Source: an uncultured virus (IMG/VR IMGVR_UViG_3300038393_001696)
Lineage: Duplodnaviria; Heunggongvirae; Uroviricota; Caudoviricetes
Direction: 5' to 3' (one strand)
Length of the DNA: 64,000 nucleotides
IMG/VR virus record: IMGVR_UViG_3300038393_001696
In this document: piece after piece, positions 49,579 through 56,057 of the stretch
How positions within the stretch are numbered: the stretch's first letter is position 1
How the letters are laid out: the number at the start of each line of letters is the position of its first letter
The notes under the pieces: generated by a model
Told to the model about the DNA's origin: nothing
Seen by the model: the letters and a program-made list of their open reading frames with translations, nothing else
Databases searched by the model: none
Made by a program: the position numbers and the translations under genes

Positions 49579-50008
49579 GGATCGCCCTCCGCTGAGGCGG
49601 CGGCGCAAACAGCGCCGCCGCCCACCCGTTCGGTGCCGCTGCCGCCTTGCGCTGCCAGTACAGGCCGCTGCGTTGCGCCTTGCGCCGATCATCCACCTCA
49701 GTGCCCTTGACGCGCTTCTCGTAGCGGGCCCAGATCTGCTGGCGCGTCAGGCGCTTCAGGTTCTCCGGCGCGTCCGCGCCGGGCCCCGGCACGTACACCG
49801 GCATTGGCACGCCGCCGCCGTCGCGGTGCCGCCAGCGGCCGACGTGCACCTTGCCTTCGCGGTGCAGCTGCGCCACCGCCCGCGCCACCGTATAGGTTGG
49901 CAGGCCGGTGGCCGCGGCAATGGCCGGCCGCGTGCCCGGCAGCGCCGCCAGCACCGCTGCCCGCGCCGGCGCCCGGCGCGGATCGACATAGCCATCCGGG
50001 CGCTTCAT
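49571..50008 (-). CDS. HTH protein
   Basis: IAAATGLPTYTVARAV. Confidence 0.5.
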   Translation of the reverse strand: MKRPDGYVDPRRAPARAAVLAALPGTRPAIAAATGLPTYTVARAVAQLHREGKVHVGRWRHRDGGGVPMPVYVPGPGADAPENLKRLTRQQIWARYEKRVKGTEVDDRRKAQRSGLYWQRKAAAAPNGWAAALFAPPPQRRAIHA

Positions 50009-53000
50009 GCCGCCTCCCTGCGGTCCTGCTGCTCGTCCAGCGCCTCGAGGTCGAACAGGGTCGGCATGCTGACCTCGCGCTCCATCGCCCGGCAGTAGTG
50101 CACCTGGTCGGCAAAGTAACCGGCGTTCAGCTCCGAGCCCATGCCATAGCGCCCCAGCTTCATCGCCCGCACCGGCACCGTGCCCAGCCCGGAGAACGGG
50201 TCGTAGACGGTGTCGCCCGGGTTGCTGTAGCGGTTGATCAGGCGGTCGACGATGTCGATCTGGAACGGGCACACGTGCTTCTCGACCGCGCGCGCCGACT
50301 GCGCGCCGTTCAAGGTGATCATCCGGTTCACGTCGTGCCACACCGCCGGGTCGGCGCTGCCGGGCGCCAGCGACATGAAGGTCGACGGCAGCGCGCCGCG
50401 CGCCTGCAGTTCCTCGCCGGTCTGCACGTGGCGTTCGTAGTCGTACACGTGGCGCAGGCTGTCGTCGGTGAAGAACTTGGCCAGCTTGGCCGGGCCCAGC
50501 GCCGCTAGCTCCTCGGCGCTCATCAGCCGGTTACCGCTCGAGCGCCAGAACGCGTGCGCATCGATCTGCCAGCGCGCCAGCGAATAGCCCGGGTCGTACT
50601 CGATCACCTCGGCGAACGCGCCGTTGACTGCCTCCTCGAACTCCGGGTGGTCCTCGGTCAGCACCGTGCCGTCCGCCAGCACCACCCGCCCCGTCTTGCT
50701 CTTTCTGACCGGCAGGTCGGCATAGCCGCGCGAGCGGTCGCTCTGCGGCTTGTGGAACAGCAGCACGTATTCCGGCGAGCCAACGCCCATCTTGGTTCCA
50801 TCCTTGCACATCTCCGTGTAGCCCAGCCGGTAGGTCTGGTTGTTCTCGCGCACCACGTCGGTCACCACAGTGATCATCCCCAGGTAGTCGAAGCCATGGC
50901 GCATGCCGTGGAACAGCGCCTCCGCGTGGAACGGGCTGACGGTCGGCAGGCCGTCGCCGGTCACGTTGCCGAAGTTGATCCGGTCCTTCACGTGGCAGGC
51001 GTAGATGCGGCCCGGCTGCAGGATCCGGTAAAGCTGCGGCGTCAGGAAGTCCATCTGCGCCCAGAAGTGGGCGTTGTCCTGGGTGTGGCCGAAGTCGTTG
51101 TAGCTGGGGCTGTACTCGTAGTGGTTGGCGAACGGGATTGACGTCACGATCAGCCCGACCGAGTTGTCCGGCTGTTCGCGCGCCTCCAGCACGCAGTCGT
51201 TGTTGGCCACCGTGAAGCGCTCGCCCTTGACGACACGCCGCTCGACGCCAATCGTGCGCGCCAGCGACTCCTGCATCGACAGGTGGTCCAACCCGTAGGC
51301 GCGGATGATCTCACCCATCGTGCCCTGCATCGCGTCGTGCTGGCGCCACTTGTCCTGCAGCTCGGCCAGCACGGCACGCTCGACCTCGGTGTGGATGATG
51401 TGCACAGTGCACGGCGCAGTTTGGCCGAAGCGATGAATCCTGTGAATGGCTTGAATGAAGTCCGCAAACTTGAATCCAATGCCAGCGAAAATCATCGTGT
51501 GGCACTGCTGCAGATTGACGCCGGCGCCATACATCACCGGCTTCGTCAGGAAAACGTCGGTGTCGCCAGCGCGCCACTTGTTCAGCAGCGCCTCCCGCTC
51601 ATCTACAGTTTGGCTACCAGTCAGGGATGAAACCGAAAGCCCCTCGGCCCTCAGGGCGCGCTCGATGGCTTGCTGCTCGTCGTTGAGATCGCACCAGACG
51701 ATGACTTGTTCAGGTAGTTCGCCGCCCGATTGACCAGATCGATCCGGTCCATGAACATCCCCAGTCCTGCATTGCAGCGGTGGCACAGCAACCCGCGCAC
51801 CCTCCCCGTCGTGTGGCAATGATCCACATACAGCGGATGCCTCTTGCTCGCCAGCCCGTGCTCCCCCTCGCAGATCGCGCACCGACCGCCCTGCGCCGCC
51901 AGCATCGCCTGATACTGCGCTTCCGTCAGTCCGTACCGCGCCAATTTCTGCGCGCGCGACTGCGCCGCTGCACGTGGCTTGTTCTGGGCGTACCATTCCC
52001 GGCTCCGCTGAACGGATAACCCGGGATGCGATAGCCGGTGACTCTCCTGGAGCTCCTTCATCCGCTCCGGGTTCGCCTCGCGCCAACGTTTGCTCCGTGC
52101 CGCATGCTCCTCCGGCTTCGCTTCGTAATTCCGCTTGTTGCGCGCCCGCTGCTTGACCAGCAGCTGCTCCTTGTTCTTCTCGTAGTACTCCTTGAGGTAA
52201 CGCCTTCTTTCTTCTTTCGTCACGGACGATCTCCACGAGTCGCTCGACGCGCTTCTCGATGCTGTCACGCTTCTCCCCTGCGGCAGCGGCCAACCCCATC
52301 GCCACGTTCGGGATCAGCAGGCCCTGCCCGTTTTTCTCGGCACCAGCAGCGTCGTAATTACTTGGTACTTCATGGTAGCGCACTCGCAGCTCGGGTAGTA
52401 CATAGCCGTCATCCGAATGACCCAGATCACTCGGCTTCTGAATGAAGCACGCCCAGCTAGCCACCCACAGCCAGAATTCGCGCTCCTTGTGCGGGTACAA
52501 GGTCAGGTTGCCGGCCTTCTCGCTGTCGCGCTGGAAGAAGCGCGTCAAGGCCTGGCCGGTGTCCATCACGCCGAGAAAGCCGGCGTAGTGGATCAGTTCC
52601 TTGTAGCGGTTCGGGCTCGGCGTGGCGGTGAACACGAACTTGAACTCGACCTGCTCGAACAGCGGCAGGAACTCCTGGTAGGTCTTGCTGCCGAAGCTGC
52701 GCAGCACGCTGGCCTCGTCGAGAGCAGCGGCACCGAACTGGCGCACATCGAGCTTGCCGTCGCGGACCGTCTCATAATTGGTCATGTACAGCGTCGCCGG
52801 GTCGTCGACCTCGGCATCCGAACGGATGAACCGCAGGTCGAGCGCCTGGTCGCCGGTGAAGCGTTGCGCCACTTCGCGCGTGAATTCGCCGCGCACGCCG
52901 AGCGGCAACACGATCAGGCGCTTGCACGGGCGGTGCTGGCCGATCTGGCGCATGATCTCCAGGTTGGTGGAGGTCTTGTGCAGGCCGAACGAAGCGAACA

Positions 53001-53163
53001 CGGCGCGCTGGCCGCCACGCAGCGCCCACTGGACGATCTGGCGCGTGTGCGGCTTCAGGTGCGGGTTGATCCGCTCCATCGGCACGTCGAAGCCGAGCCG
53101 CGGCGCCAGCCGGATCTTGGCCCGCAAGAAGTCGTGGTACTTTGTTAAAATGTCATCAGCCAA
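50005..53163 (-). CDS. SNF2-like helicase fused to an N6/N4 DNA methyltransferase, with an internal insertion
   Basis: GLHKT, LDEAS, TATP, QAIHRIHRFGQ; TSIPF, HVCP, DPFSGLGT; TTG start inferred. Confidence 0.88.
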   Translation of the reverse strand: MADDILTKYHDFLRAKIRLAPRLGFDVPMERINPHLKPHTRQIVQWALRGGQRAVFASFGLHKTSTNLEIMRQIGQHRPCKRLIVLPLGVRGEFTREVAQRFTGDQALDLRFIRSDAEVDDPATLYMTNYETVRDGKLDVRQFGAAALDEASVLRSFGSKTYQEFLPLFEQVEFKFVFTATPSPNRYKELIHYAGFLGVMDTGQALTRFFQRDSEKAGNLTLYPHKEREFWLWVASWACFIQKPSDLGHSDDGYVLPELRVRYHEVPSNYDAAGAEKNGQGLLIPNVAMGLAAAAGEKRDSIEKRVERLVEIVRDERRKKALPQGVLREEQGAAAGQAAGAQQAELRSEAGGACGTEQTLARGEPGADEGAPGESPAIASRVIRSAEPGMVRPEQATCSGAVARAEIGAVRTDGSAVSGDAGGAGRSVRDLRGGARAGEQEASAVCGSLPHDGEGARVAVPPLQCRTGDVHGPDRSGQSGGELPEQVIVWCDLNDEQQAIERALRAEGLSVSSLTGSQTVDEREALLNKWRAGDTDVFLTKPVMYGAGVNLQQCHTMIFAGIGFKFADFIQAIHRIHRFGQTAPCTVHIIHTEVERAVLAELQDKWRQHDAMQGTMGEIIRAYGLDHLSMQESLARTIGVERRVVKGERFTVANNDCVLEAREQPDNSVGLIVTSIPFANHYEYSPSYNDFGHTQDNAHFWAQMDFLTPQLYRILQPGRIYACHVKDRINFGNVTGDGLPTVSPFHAEALFHGMRHGFDYLGMITVVTDVVRENNQTYRLGYTEMCKDGTKMGVGSPEYVLLFHKPQSDRSRGYADLPVRKSKTGRVVLADGTVLTEDHPEFEEAVNGAFAEVIEYDPGYSLARWQIDAHAFWRSSGNRLMSAEELAALGPAKLAKFFTDDSLRHVYDYERHVQTGEELQARGALPSTFMSLAPGSADPAVWHDVNRMITLNGAQSARAVEKHVCPFQIDIVDRLINRYSNPGDTVYDPFSGLGTVPVRAMKLGRYGMGSELNAGYFADQVHYCRAMEREVSMPTLFDLEALDEQQDRREAA
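51651..52223 (-). CDS. Endonuclease VII-family (homing-type) nuclease nested in another frame of the helicase-methylase
   Basis: YGLT..QY..ML..QGGRCAIC, VDHCHTTGRVRGLLCHRCN.GLG; GGAG 7 nt before a GTG start. Confidence 0.88.
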   Translation of the reverse strand: MTKEERRRYLKEYYEKNKEQLLVKQRARNKRNYEAKPEEHAARSKRWREANPERMKELQESHRLSHPGLSVQRSREWYAQNKPRAAAQSRAQKLARYGLTEAQYQAMLAAQGGRCAICEGEHGLASKRHPLYVDHCHTTGRVRGLLCHRCNAGLGMFMDRIDLVNRAANYLNKSSSGAISTTSSKPSSAP

Positions 53164-53234
53164 TTTCGATCCCCATTGTTGTTGGTCAGAGGCCGCCGCC
53201 AGTTGCCGCTGGCGGCGGCTTCGTCTTGTAAAGG

Positions 53235-53618
53235 TCAGCCCGCGCGCAACGACCACGCCGGGATGTCCGGCCGGATACCGCGCGTGCTCGGGATGTGGCG
53301 CTTGCTCAGCGGCGGCCGGTTCATCACATCAATCTGCCGGGGCGCTGCGATCTGGCCAGGGCACTCCGTCTCCGGCTCGGCCGGGCCGTCGTTCTCGTAG
53401 TGCGCCAGCGCGGCGTCGGTCAGCGCGATCCGTCCGCACGGCAGCCGGCGCAGCCAGCCGGACTGGATGTCGCGCTCGAGGTTGGCCTCGCGGATGCCCG
53501 GCTTGGGGCCGTAGTGCACCCGCGCGAACAGGTCGGCGGGCAGCTTCGAGCCCTCTTCGTAGATCAGCGCGCCGGCCAGGTAGGCGGCGGTGCTGCGTTT
53601 CGGGTGCGGGCGGGTCAT
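53235..53618 (-). CDS. Phage hypothetical protein
   Basis: Homolog of 1-245. Confidence 0.6.
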   Translation of the reverse strand: MTRPHPKRSTAAYLAGALIYEEGSKLPADLFARVHYGPKPGIREANLERDIQSGWLRRLPCGRIALTDAALAHYENDGPAEPETECPGQIAAPRQIDVMNRPPLSKRHIPSTRGIRPDIPAWSLRAG

Positions 53619-53721: not shown

Positions 53722-55605
53722 TCATGCCGCGGCCCTCGCAATCTCGCGTTCGTGCGCGAAGTTGGCGCGGATCAGCGCCTCGGCGACCGTCGGGCAGACG
53801 CTGTTGCCGCACATGCGGACCTGCGACGACTTCGGCAGCGCAATGCGCGGCAGCAGGCGTGGGTCGCCGTCGACCTGCCGGCCATCCACGAACAGCAGCT
53901 TCGGGTCGGGAATCTCGTCGATCACGTAGGTGCTCGGGAAGCCCTGGGCGCGGTACAGCTCGTGCGGCGCCAGCATGCGCAGGCCGATGTCGACGATCTG
54001 GTAGTCCTGGCCTTGAATCGTCACCAGCCCGAAGCGGTCATGCGTGGGAATCGTGTGCAGCGGCGCACCCAGCTCGACGCCGTCCTTGTCGTTGCCGTAG
54101 TACTTGATCAGGAAGGCCCGGACCTCGGCGTGGTGCTGGCCCTGCGCGCTGATCGTGCCGATCGGCTCGTTGGTGGCCGCTGCCGCCGAGGTGCCGCGCA
54201 GCTTGACCAGATTGCTGGTGACCAGCCTGTGGTGGTCCTGCGTGGTCACCGTGCTGATCGGCTTGTCGAGCGGCCATCCCGGCGATTCGTTGCCGCCGAA
54301 GCTCTTCTCGAGGAACGCCGTCGCCAGCGCGACATCGTACTTCGCCGTGGTAGTCGCCGTCGGCTCATCCAGCCCGCGCGGCCGGCGGTCGCCTGCCCGG
54401 CCGCCGACGCCAACTAGCGCAGCCGACACCATGCTGAAGTGACCGCCCTTAACCTGGGCGCACACCGTGCGCAGCGGCTGGTCCACCGGCATCACGCGCT
54501 GGTTGCTGGCGTTCGCGTGCTCGTTCAGGAAGGCGCTAACCAGCGTCGCATTGTTTTCGACCGGCTGCAGCGTCGCCTGCGCCAGCGCCTTCTCGCCGCG
54601 GTGCGCCGCCGTGATCGTGCGGAACGGCTCGTGCACCGACTCGCTGCGGTCGCCACCCTGGTGCGTGACCGGGACGATCGACGGCAGCACGATCGCGCGG
54701 TGGTTCTCGGTCGTCAGCGTGCCAAGCGGCTGGGTCACCGGCACCGGCTTGCCGGCGTAGATCGGCCCGCCCTGGCCGACGATGAACGGTGTCGGGTTGT
54801 CGATCACGTAGCGCATGATGCCCTTGGCGATGCGGCGCAGGGTCGCCTCGGCCAGCGGACGCTTGCGGTTGAAGATGGACGGGCACGGCAGCGACCAGTC
54901 GATGCATTCGGCGGCCGTGCGATATGGCTTGAGCTTGCCGGTCCTGACCATGGGATGGTCCGGTGCCGCGTGCGATTGCTCGGGCCACACGATGGGCAGG
55001 TGGTCGCGCCGCGCCACCATGAACAGGCGCTTCCTGATCGTCGGCGTATTGAGGTCACTGGCGCGCAGCTCGCGGAACTCGATCTTGTAGCCATGGCCTT
55101 CCAGCTGCCGCTTGAAGCTGCGGAAGGTCACGCCCTTCTTCGCCGGATCCGGCAGCCAGACTTCCTCCCCGTCGACCATCTTGCGCATCAGCGGGCCCCA
55201 GGTGACGAATTCCTCCACGTTCTCGAGCATGATGACCCTCGGCTTGCACTTGGCCGCCCAGCGCATCGTCACCCATGCCAGTCCGCGAATCTTCTTCTCG
55301 ACCGGCTTTCCGCCCTTGGCCTTGGAGAAGTGCTTGCAGTCGGGCGACAGCCACACCAGACCGACCGGCTGATTGTTGGTCACCTCGATCGGGTCGACGT
55401 CCCATACCGACTCGCACAGGTGCTTCGTGTACGGATGGTTCAGCGCATGCATCGCCAGCGCCTCCGGGTCATGGTTGATCGCGATGTCGACCGGGCGACC
55501 GAACGCGGACTCAATACCGGTGCTGGTCCCGCCGCCGCCGGCGAAGTTGTCCACGATCAGTTCGTTGCCCAGGTCGAGCGCCATCGTCAGCAGATCGCGC
55601 TTCAT
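53722..55605 (-). CDS. C5 DNA cytosine methyltransferase
   Basis: DNFAGGGG, SPDC, LENV, RKRLF, GNSV. Confidence 0.92.
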   Translation of the reverse strand: MKRDLLTMALDLGNELIVDNFAGGGGTSTGIESAFGRPVDIAINHDPEALAMHALNHPYTKHLCESVWDVDPIEVTNNQPVGLVWLSPDCKHFSKAKGGKPVEKKIRGLAWVTMRWAAKCKPRVIMLENVEEFVTWGPLMRKMVDGEEVWLPDPAKKGVTFRSFKRQLEGHGYKIEFRELRASDLNTPTIRKRLFMVARRDHLPIVWPEQSHAAPDHPMVRTGKLKPYRTAAECIDWSLPCPSIFNRKRPLAEATLRRIAKGIMRYVIDNPTPFIVGQGGPIYAGKPVPVTQPLGTLTTENHRAIVLPSIVPVTHQGGDRSESVHEPFRTITAAHRGEKALAQATLQPVENNATLVSAFLNEHANASNQRVMPVDQPLRTVCAQVKGGHFSMVSAALVGVGGRAGDRRPRGLDEPTATTTAKYDVALATAFLEKSFGGNESPGWPLDKPISTVTTQDHHRLVTSNLVKLRGTSAAAATNEPIGTISAQGQHHAEVRAFLIKYYGNDKDGVELGAPLHTIPTHDRFGLVTIQGQDYQIVDIGLRMLAPHELYRAQGFPSTYVIDEIPDPKLLFVDGRQVDGDPRLLPRIALPKSSQVRMCGNSVCPTVAEALIRANFAHEREIARAAA

Positions 55606-56057
55606 GCCCGCACCCCGACCGCCGGCCCGAACAGCGCCGCCACCATCGGGTCGCGCATCACCGGCAGCCGGCTGACGCGGATCGCGAAGTCGACGTCGTC
55701 CTCCATCAGGTGCAGGTGCCGGCCCGGGTCGCGCTGGGCCACCGCCAGCTGCGCGCGGCTTGCCTTCTGGCGCGCGCCGCGCTGCTGCGGCGCTTCGTCC
55801 AAACCGGCGAGGAACGCCGCCACGCACTGCGCGTCGGCGGTCAACCGGTAGCGGCGTTGCACGGTCCGGCCGCCCTCGATCACCTCGACCAGCGGCAACA
55901 GGTCGCGCACATAGCCGCGCACGCCGGAGCCGCTCTGGCCGAGTTCCTCGGCGATGTCGTCGCGCGACAGCGTGCGCCGCTGCAATTCGCCGACCAGGCG
56001 GCGCAGGTTGGCGGTGCGGCGCACGGTGCGGCGGTCGTTGGTGGTGGCGAGCGTCAT
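55602..56057 (-). CDS. HTH protein
   Basis: IAEELGQSGSGVRGY; homolog of 925-1359. Confidence 0.6.
   Translation of the reverse strand: MTLATTNDRRTVRRTANLRRLVGELQRRTLSRDDIAEELGQSGSGVRGYVRDLLPLVEVIEGGRTVQRRYRLTADAQCVAAFLAGLDEAPQQRGARQKASRAQLAVAQRDPGRHLHLMEDDVDFAIRVSRLPVMRDPMVAALFGPAVGVRA

Follow-up and report, generated by a model that had tools for sequence, protein, structure and literature searches.

The DNA considered here is a stretch of 64,000 nucleotides from an uncultured virus of the Caudoviricetes (IMG/VR record IMGVR_UViG_3300038393_001696). This whole stretch is called the window throughout; it is a temperate siphovirus-like phage or prophage, with terminase, portal, capsid, tape-measure, integrase and DnaC-like loader genes. 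On its minus strand lies a gene for a superfamily 2 (SF2) helicase joined to an N6/N4 DNA methylase. Between the two RecA-like lobes of the helicase, this host gene holds an insert in which an Endonuclease VII-family gene is encoded in another frame of the same strand, and the host frame itself is free of stop codons. The features on which the analysis turns are as follows (aa, amino acids; nt, nucleotides; ORF, open reading frame; PDB, Protein Data Bank; AF2, AlphaFold2; pLDDT, predicted local distance difference test).

50005..53256, minus strand: host gene, SF2 helicase and N6/N4 DNA methylase ORF of 1083 aa, stop-free (translation, Pfam, alignments)
52222..53256, minus strand: host part 5' of the insert, helicase lobe 1, codons 1-345, ending ...RLVEIVRD (alignments; AF2 pLDDT mostly 75-95)
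51706..52221, minus strand: insert in the host frame, codons 346-517 (ERRKK...GELPE), a stop-free, G/A/E/R/S/P-rich linker between the lobes (alignment with insertion-free homologues)
51651..52223, minus strand: Endonuclease VII-family gene in the +1 frame, 190 codons from GTG at 52223, plus stop (Pfam, PDB matches, same start in the ORFs of lineages L008 and L156)
51705..51947, minus strand: Endonuclease_7 (His-Me finger) catalytic domain, residues 108-188 of the 205-aa ORF, with CAIC, VDHCH and CHRCN (Pfam, structure alignments)
52221..52234, minus strand: start signals, GGAG (52234-52231), a 7-nt spacer and GTG (52223-52221), all within host codons (sequence, lineage comparison)

The host gene and the nested endonuclease gene

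Pfam profiles match the host protein at residues 515-611 (Helicase_C, E 7.3e-12) and 702-1048 (N6_N4_Mtase, E 5e-12). The protein matches 349 phage records in all, and two insertion-free homologues, gp56 of Mycobacterium phage Charlie and gp71 of Arthrobacter phage Tiff81, are 61-63% identical to it and served to set the borders of the insert. The initial annotation of the locus, made from the letters alone, had described an unbroken host ORF with about 170 non-domain-like residues between EIVRD and PEQVIVWCD. The alignment agrees with this description: the ORF runs without a stop through 1083 residues, and residues 346-517 (172 codons, 516 nt) stand where the homologues have a linker of about seven residues, bordered by ...VEIVxD in the last helix of lobe 1 and by Q(I/V)I(V/I)WCDLNDEQ in the first strand of lobe 2. 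The AF2 model, based on a 23-row alignment, gives residues 352-514 as coil with no secondary structure at a pLDDT <50, against 75-95 for the lobes on both sides. At the other end of the protein, no homologue aligns with the first ~38 residues of the listed host ORF (window 53140-53256, minus strand), a part that overlaps the upstream ORF; the homologues align only from residue 38-40, and the true start of the host gene probably lies further downstream.

The nested ORF as listed spans 51651..52268 (205 aa) on the host strand, with its codon position 1 falling on host codon position 2. It had been read as an Endonuclease VII-type nuclease, an assignment which Pfam Endonuclease_7 (PF02945) confirms at 82.9 bits (cut-off 23.6, E 1.6e-23) over profile positions 4-82 of 82. 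The CxxC, DHCH and CxxCN elements align with those of T4 endonuclease VII (1e7d, E 2.9e-5) and of Hpy99I (3fc3, E 2.7e-5), and the CAIC, VDHCH and CHRCN motifs are kept in all three lineages that were aligned; the two CxxC are presumably zinc pairs and D-H the catalytic motif. The N-terminal ~100 residues carry repeated Y-x-x-x-N-K/R-E motifs that are common to free-standing phage homologues. No second copy of the nuclease was found in the window.

Both ends of the nuclease gene reach into host codons. Judged by the homologous ORFs of L008 and L156, its start is the GTG at 52223-52221, and the GGAG/GTG start that the initial annotation had seen in host codons is indeed formed by GTG-GAG-ATC-GTC-CGT-GAC. 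In eight of the nine invaded lineages described below, GGAG or GAGG lies 7-10 nt 5' of an ATG, GTG or TTG, L008 having GGAA. As a cassette-specific signal GGAG was considered and ruled out, since 53/115 empty alleles have it too. The nuclease ORF brings no stop of its own, and its last ~18 codons and TGA (51651-51653) fall inside conserved host codons (A-L-R).

Recurrence of the insert and stop codons in the host frame

At the same site and with the same +1 offset, homologous nucleases (39-54% aa identity) are present in nine DNA lineages, namely the window, L008, L156, L232, L260, L311, L313, L314 and L336. L008 was found through the nuclease, L156 through the host halves, and L232, L260, L313, L314 and L336 through the host flanks, all seven by searches which needed no open host frame. 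L311 is the DNA of P0004, which, together with P0003 and P0005, is one of three further full-length forms recovered in a protein search with the junction region; a search for shorter or split forms of that region gave no match. The nearest record, the 22.7-kb fragment G001, is 100% identical in both the host protein and the nested nuclease, and hence was not counted as independent. The state of the host frame in other copies had been named in the initial annotation as a point to check: the frame is open in 9/9 lineages, frequent stops were not found, and both host halves are conserved and in frame in all copies.

Among related IMG/VR loci, the insert is present in 2/78, the other 76 having a gap of 18-51 nt at the site, and in a wider set it is present in 8/158, with 15-84 nt at the site in 147/158; both counts include the window's lineage, and the two later scans overlap. 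Among the best 40 of 1918 records of nuclease matches in cultured phages, none lies under a helicase or methylase gene. Scans with the nuclease alignment of metagenomes (at least 61 loci) and of genomes (at least 3 Microbacterium loci, with N-terminal similarity only) gave none flanked by helicase halves among the matches listed, both being weak searches with patterns from the N-terminal repeats.

A stop in the host frame is possible only where a nuclease codon ending in T precedes a codon starting with AA, AG or GA. Across the nine lineages wobble T is found at 0/498 of these at-risk junctions, against 211/1107 of the other junctions, the window contributing 0/53 and 19/136, respectively. When the first three lineages are taken apart from the other six, T stands at 0/53, 0/65 and 0/49 of their at-risk junctions and at 62/364 of the other junctions (Fisher p 1.1e-11), and the corresponding counts for the six are 0/331 and 149/743 (p 8e-27). 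A general dinucleotide avoidance is no explanation, since T occupies 66/600 and 101/1067 of the equivalent junctions when the host genes are read in their own frame outside the insert. The lack of wobble T before nuclease codons that start with AA, AG or GA is the result of selection removing host-frame stops.

The same picture is obtained where base composition gives little help to an open frame. The host gene of L008 has 52% GC, so that ~13 stops are expected in the insert (P(0) 3e-7), and its frame is open, as is that of L232 (locus 52% GC). Synonymous shuffles lack a host-frame stop in 41/20000 cases for the window and in 551/20000 for L008, and in free-standing homologues the equivalent frame is open in 1/56 distinct sequences and in 0/23 of those of at least 120 codons. 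The argument for selection is carried by the set of lineages and not by the window alone. Judged over that set, these counts show that selection, not GC content, keeps the host frame open, and the host protein is therefore most likely read through the insert.

What selection maintains in the two frames appears to be different. Between lineages the differences are most frequent at the third position of the nuclease codons (0.48-0.60), the first and second positions having 0.34-0.39, the least variable codon position of the insert in the host frame is the host third position, and identity among the aligned lineages (window, L008 and L156) is 49-54% in the nuclease frame, whereas between lineages it is only 27-36% in the host frame. 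This pattern of substitutions shows that protein-level constraint lies on the nuclease frame, and the host-frame stretch would thus be constrained only to stay open.

Transfer of the insert together with its flanks

On either side of the insert, a tract of the host gene differs from the remainder in its G+C at third codon positions (GC3).

51402..51705, minus strand: downstream co-converted flank, host codons 518-618, start of lobe 2, GC3 73/101 (GC3, nearest relatives, metagenome boundary)
52222..52403, minus strand: upstream co-converted flank, host codons ~284-345, GC3 43/62 (GC3, metagenome boundary)

That the flanks look less GC-biased at third positions had been noticed in the initial annotation, and the counts agree: GC3 is 116/163 (71%) in codons 284-345 and 518-618 taken together, against 660/709 (93%) in the rest of the gene (p 4.7e-13), and close insertion-free relatives are without this dip. 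The nearest relatives of the downstream flank are other invaded alleles, unlike those of the rest of the gene. For the upstream flank of the window a lineage switch was not seen at the protein level, and only GC3 and the metagenome read boundaries mark it.

Two pairs of alleles, one invaded and the other empty, delimit the transferred tract, the members of a pair being 94-100% identical save for a tract about the insert. P0003 is 99% identical to the insertion-free L208 over 616 columns, however its residues 518-640 are at most 58% identical to the L208 clade and have the window as nearest relative (83%); its upstream tract is only ~8 residues long. L311 and the insertion-free L312 have a nucleotide identity of 0.89-1.00 outside residues 271-614 and of 0.53-0.74 inside. 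All six insert-bearing rows belong to a single 23-row clade of the flank tree (support 100/99), where the insert label requires 3 changes, a number as low as which was reached by 0/500 shuffles, whereas the tree built from the rest of the gene calls for 6 changes among the 6 rows. For the rest of the gene, a tree that keeps the flank-tree group together is rejected by the approximately unbiased (AU) test (p 0.00018).

Related alleles in metagenomes, as distinct from the window's own strain, change over at the same places. In four soil or rhizosphere metagenome runs, depth over ~51402-52400 is mostly 11-50, against up to ~400 in much of the neighbouring sequence, and contigs of related alleles lose their match at 51401 and regain it at 52403 in 3/4 of the runs. 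One metagenome contig has 358 nt in place of 865 nt, that is, 507 nt fewer. Taken together, the allele pairs, the incongruent trees and the switch at 51401/52403 show that the insert moves between alleles together with its flanks, and the earlier description of these flanks as co-converted is upheld.

At the start of lobe 2 (residues 518-640) the alleles divide deeply into two types: 23 rows have WCDLNDEQ and 55 have WHDLEDER, and the branch between them measures 0.61, at a support of 100/99. Insert-bearing alleles are all of the WCDLNDEQ type, irrespective of their sequence elsewhere in the gene. A WHDLESER-type relative, L334, has a different in-frame insert of ~180 residues (~1458-2009) directly after the first helix of lobe 2, which reads like a folded domain and is without an Endonuclease VII match. 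Upstream of the helicase-methylase gene, a second DNA methyltransferase gene (phrog_116, E 1.4e-96) lies at window 53722-55827 on the minus strand, and between both methyltransferase genes there is a single 168-aa ORF without a family match.

Interpretation, alternatives and related systems

In our judgement it is very probable that a mobile, homing-type Endonuclease VII-family gene has invaded the inter-lobe linker of a temperate phage helicase-methylase without the aid of an intron or intein. The initial annotation had proposed a homing-type endonuclease that doubles in coding as a linker between the lobes and has co-converted flanks, and this proposal is supported by the avoidance of stops, by the lack of a splicing element and by the transfer of the flanks. 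The cassette would comprise ~510 bp, almost wholly nuclease ORF in +1 relative to the host frame, with a Shine-Dalgarno-like GGAG and GTG in host-like codons at its 5' junction and a stop in conserved host codons at its 3' junction. Ribosomes in the host frame would read through the insert and yield a full-length helicase-methylase with an additional disordered linker of ~170 residues, as the selection suggests, and a minority of ribosomes may start internally at GGAG-N7-GTG and produce a 21-kDa nuclease. The nuclease would presumably cut insertion-free alleles of co-infecting relatives, and repair would copy the cassette with flanking host sequence, an outcome to which the allele pairs testify; variants that put a stop into the host frame are removed by selection, as the junction counts show.

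Several points weigh against this interpretation. P0003 and P0005 carry a homologous linker, however they are known as proteins only and their nested ORFs are inferred. A pLDDT below 50 is no proof of disorder. The GGAG/GAGG motif occurs at the same spot in 53/115 insertion-free alleles as well. The two recipients of transfer (L208-type and L312-type) read WHDLE(D/S)ER where the donors read WCDLNDEQ, so that there is no clear sign of a specific cut at this sequence, and the cassette could be moved by ordinary recombination when phages co-infect. The window on its own, set against its own genome background, has P(no stop) of ~0.02 and is only mildly unlikely to be open by chance, and L156 against its own background is weaker still (P ~0.11). 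Lastly, the expression of both products and the cleavage of empty alleles by the nuclease are inferred from sequence.

Phage homing endonucleases are often carried by group I introns, as is discussed in a recent paper (PMC11855218), and the insert might accordingly be a self-splicing group I or II intron with a nuclease ORF, spliced from the mRNA, the open host frame being incidental. We regard this as very unlikely. The intron search, which was limited to Rfam models, gave no intron at E up to 1 for either L008 or window 50000-53500, with only a sub-threshold small RNA match elsewhere in the latter. The nuclease ORF takes up all 516 nt of the insert and enters host codons at both ends, and thus there is no room for an intron core, as the initial annotation had remarked; an intron would also give no reason for the avoidance of host-frame stops (T 0/498 at at-risk junctions). 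Still less credible is an intein with an out-of-frame homing endonuclease, as found in some actinophage inteins, by which the 170 residues would be spliced from the protein. The relatives Minnie (L002) and Pacc40 (L230) do carry a true intein elsewhere in the gene, however the window protein as a whole has no Hint/intein family match (Pfam, E up to 0.01), and neither do the host-frame inserts of L008 and L156 match anything in Pfam at E up to 10. The initial annotation had seen no intein termini, and in line with this the junction residues vary between lineages (D|E, D|R, E|S ... E|Q, D|Q, P|Q), and none of the lineages' inserts has junctions of intein type, with a Cys/Ser start or a His-Asn end followed by Cys/Ser/Thr. 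The low identity of 27-36% in the host frame, the least variable host third position and the AF2 coil across the insert also speak against an intein. Direct repeats bounding the insert, as a target-site duplication would leave, were not found, the only internal repeats being those of the nuclease N-terminal motif.

The intein, which some mycobacteriophage members of the family such as Minnie and Pacc40 carry, spans ~330 residues in the methylase domain, at ...QMHV|C...N|CPLQ, the window's insert being elsewhere. RefSeq labels these genes 'anaerobic ribonucleoside reductase large subunit', probably on account of their intein. An exact 10-nt direct repeat, ACTTGTTCAG, occurs at 51576-51585 and 51704-51713, the one copy being at the insert's 3' junction and the second 128 nt deeper in lobe 2; it does not flank the insert and is probably a matter of chance.

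It could be held that the open frame is a mere by-product of GC-rich sequence in a helicase-methylase which, once invaded, is inactive or dispensable and under no selection for read-through. Off-frames are often open in GC3-rich genes, as the initial annotation had cautioned, and this caution holds for the window (P ~0.02) and L156 (P ~0.11) when taken singly; the ShiLan-domain paper (PMC11855218) calls such methylases dispensable. The caution does not extend to the nine-lineage set, with its 9/9 open frames and T at 0/498 against 211/1107, nor to L008 (~13 stops expected, P 3e-7) and L232 at 52% GC, and both host halves are conserved and in frame in all copies, which makes the by-product explanation highly improbable. 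A further possibility is that the nuclease is not, or is no longer, selfish, being instead a restriction-like partner module or a part of a fusion of lobe 1 with the nuclease that +1 slippage would produce at rare AGA-AGA junction codons. Relative to the host frame, which at the window's junction reads GAA-AGA-AGA-AAG, the nested frame is shifted by +1, the restriction enzyme Hpy99I is among the closest solved relatives, and a second methyltransferase stands beside the gene. Against these points, the insert is sporadic (2/78 and 8/158 related loci) and moves between alleles with its flanks, which is the pattern of a selfish element, and the junction sequence is not conserved between lineages while the Shine-Dalgarno sequence plus start is; we therefore think a partner role improbable. 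Also unlikely, in our estimate, is a specialised two-frame element in which the nuclease would depend on translation of the host gene, ribosomes in the helicase frame either opening the internal GGAG-GTG or slipping +1 at the rare-codon run. Such slippage would yield a fusion of helicase lobe 1 and nuclease that brings the cutter to DNA, and, if true, homing endonucleases would have a way of controlling their expression, and of targeting, that is not known for them.

Returning to the homing-type gene read through in the host frame, its nearest parallels are the "hidden" out-of-frame endonucleases described by Arsenault, Gosselin and Gogarten (Genes 2025, PMC11855218). Their ShiLan domain is an HNH endonuclease in the DNA methylase gp65 of mycobacteriophage ShiLan, and, as in the window, a phage DNA-modification gene contains an insert without a host-frame stop, and a complete endonuclease with a GTG start lies in another frame. 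The likeness extends, in that account, to the lack of a detectable intron or intein, to a disjunct distribution suggesting homing, and to a read-through part predicted to be poorly structured. The ShiLan nuclease is, however, an HNH enzyme with zinc fingers in the third frame, whereas that of the window is an Endonuclease_7 at +1, a distinction drawn from the published description. ShiLan's host gene belongs to a different family, with the site in the methylase instead of the inter-lobe linker of a helicase. Its authors report no ribosome-binding site and propose leaderless initiation, whereas GGAG/GAGG lies 7-10 nt 5' of the start in 8/9 lineages here.

The second case presented there (PMC11855218), gp60 of Pacc40, has an alternative 160-aa ORF in an insert that is open in the host frame. 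It belongs to the window's gene family, aligning full length with the window protein, but its insert sits after ...PSD(L/I), at about window residue 278 and ~65 residues upstream of the window's insert. The paper gives the gene directly upstream of Tiff81's methylase as a free-standing relative of the Pacc40 ORF; between the window nuclease and L003 902-1504, taken as the Tiff81 gene named in the paper, no similarity was detected (E 1.2). On these comparisons the window insert is the same kind of element as those of ShiLan and Pacc40, but it is not the same element as that of Pacc40. Two further alleles, L255 and L256, have an S/T/P/A-rich host-frame insert in the upstream insert region of Pacc40, with a sequence resembling Pacc40's, and, together with Pacc40, these inserts at the other site suggest that one gene family has been invaded at no fewer than two sites by different hidden genes.

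Other systems share only single traits with the window. The actinophage inteins with an out-of-frame endonuclease likewise have an endonuclease VII-like gene overprinted on a stretch translated in the host frame, however that stretch lies inside a self-splicing intein, whereas the window's insert has no splicing domains, and hence its stretch should stay in the protein. In nrdA of phage Aeh1 the free-standing homing endonuclease mobE reportedly splits the host gene ('genes in pieces'). It resembles the present case as an intron-less and intein-less endonuclease gene inside an enzyme gene at a domain boundary, but there the host becomes two ORFs with reassembling products, whereas every copy in the window family has one undivided ORF, and the search for split forms gave none. 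T4 endonuclease VII (1e7d, 1en7, 2qnc) and Hpy99I (3fc3) have the same His-Me finger core with two CxxC pairs; T4 endonuclease VII, a junction resolvase, differs in its C-terminal part, and the window nuclease has a 100-residue N-terminal repeat region. Literature searches gave no intein-less case of an Endonuclease VII gene in a helicase linker. What is new with respect to the published hidden endonucleases is the nuclease family, the insertion site and the frame offset, the principle having already been described in 2025.

To our knowledge, homing endonucleases have been thought to persist in protein-coding genes only by way of an intron, an intein or the splitting of the gene. The present case supports a third, splicing-free route, the one described in 2025, by which the host reads through the parasite in another frame. 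To this the window adds quantitative proof of selection for read-through, in the form of 0/498 stop-forming junctions over nine lineages, and a plain Shine-Dalgarno sequence and start codon for the hidden gene, and two near-isogenic pairs of invaded and empty alleles map the co-converted tract. Hidden genes could be sought by this codon signature, the absence of wobble T ahead of codons that begin with AA, AG or GA, and the same signature could keep annotators from naming the read-through stretch a domain.

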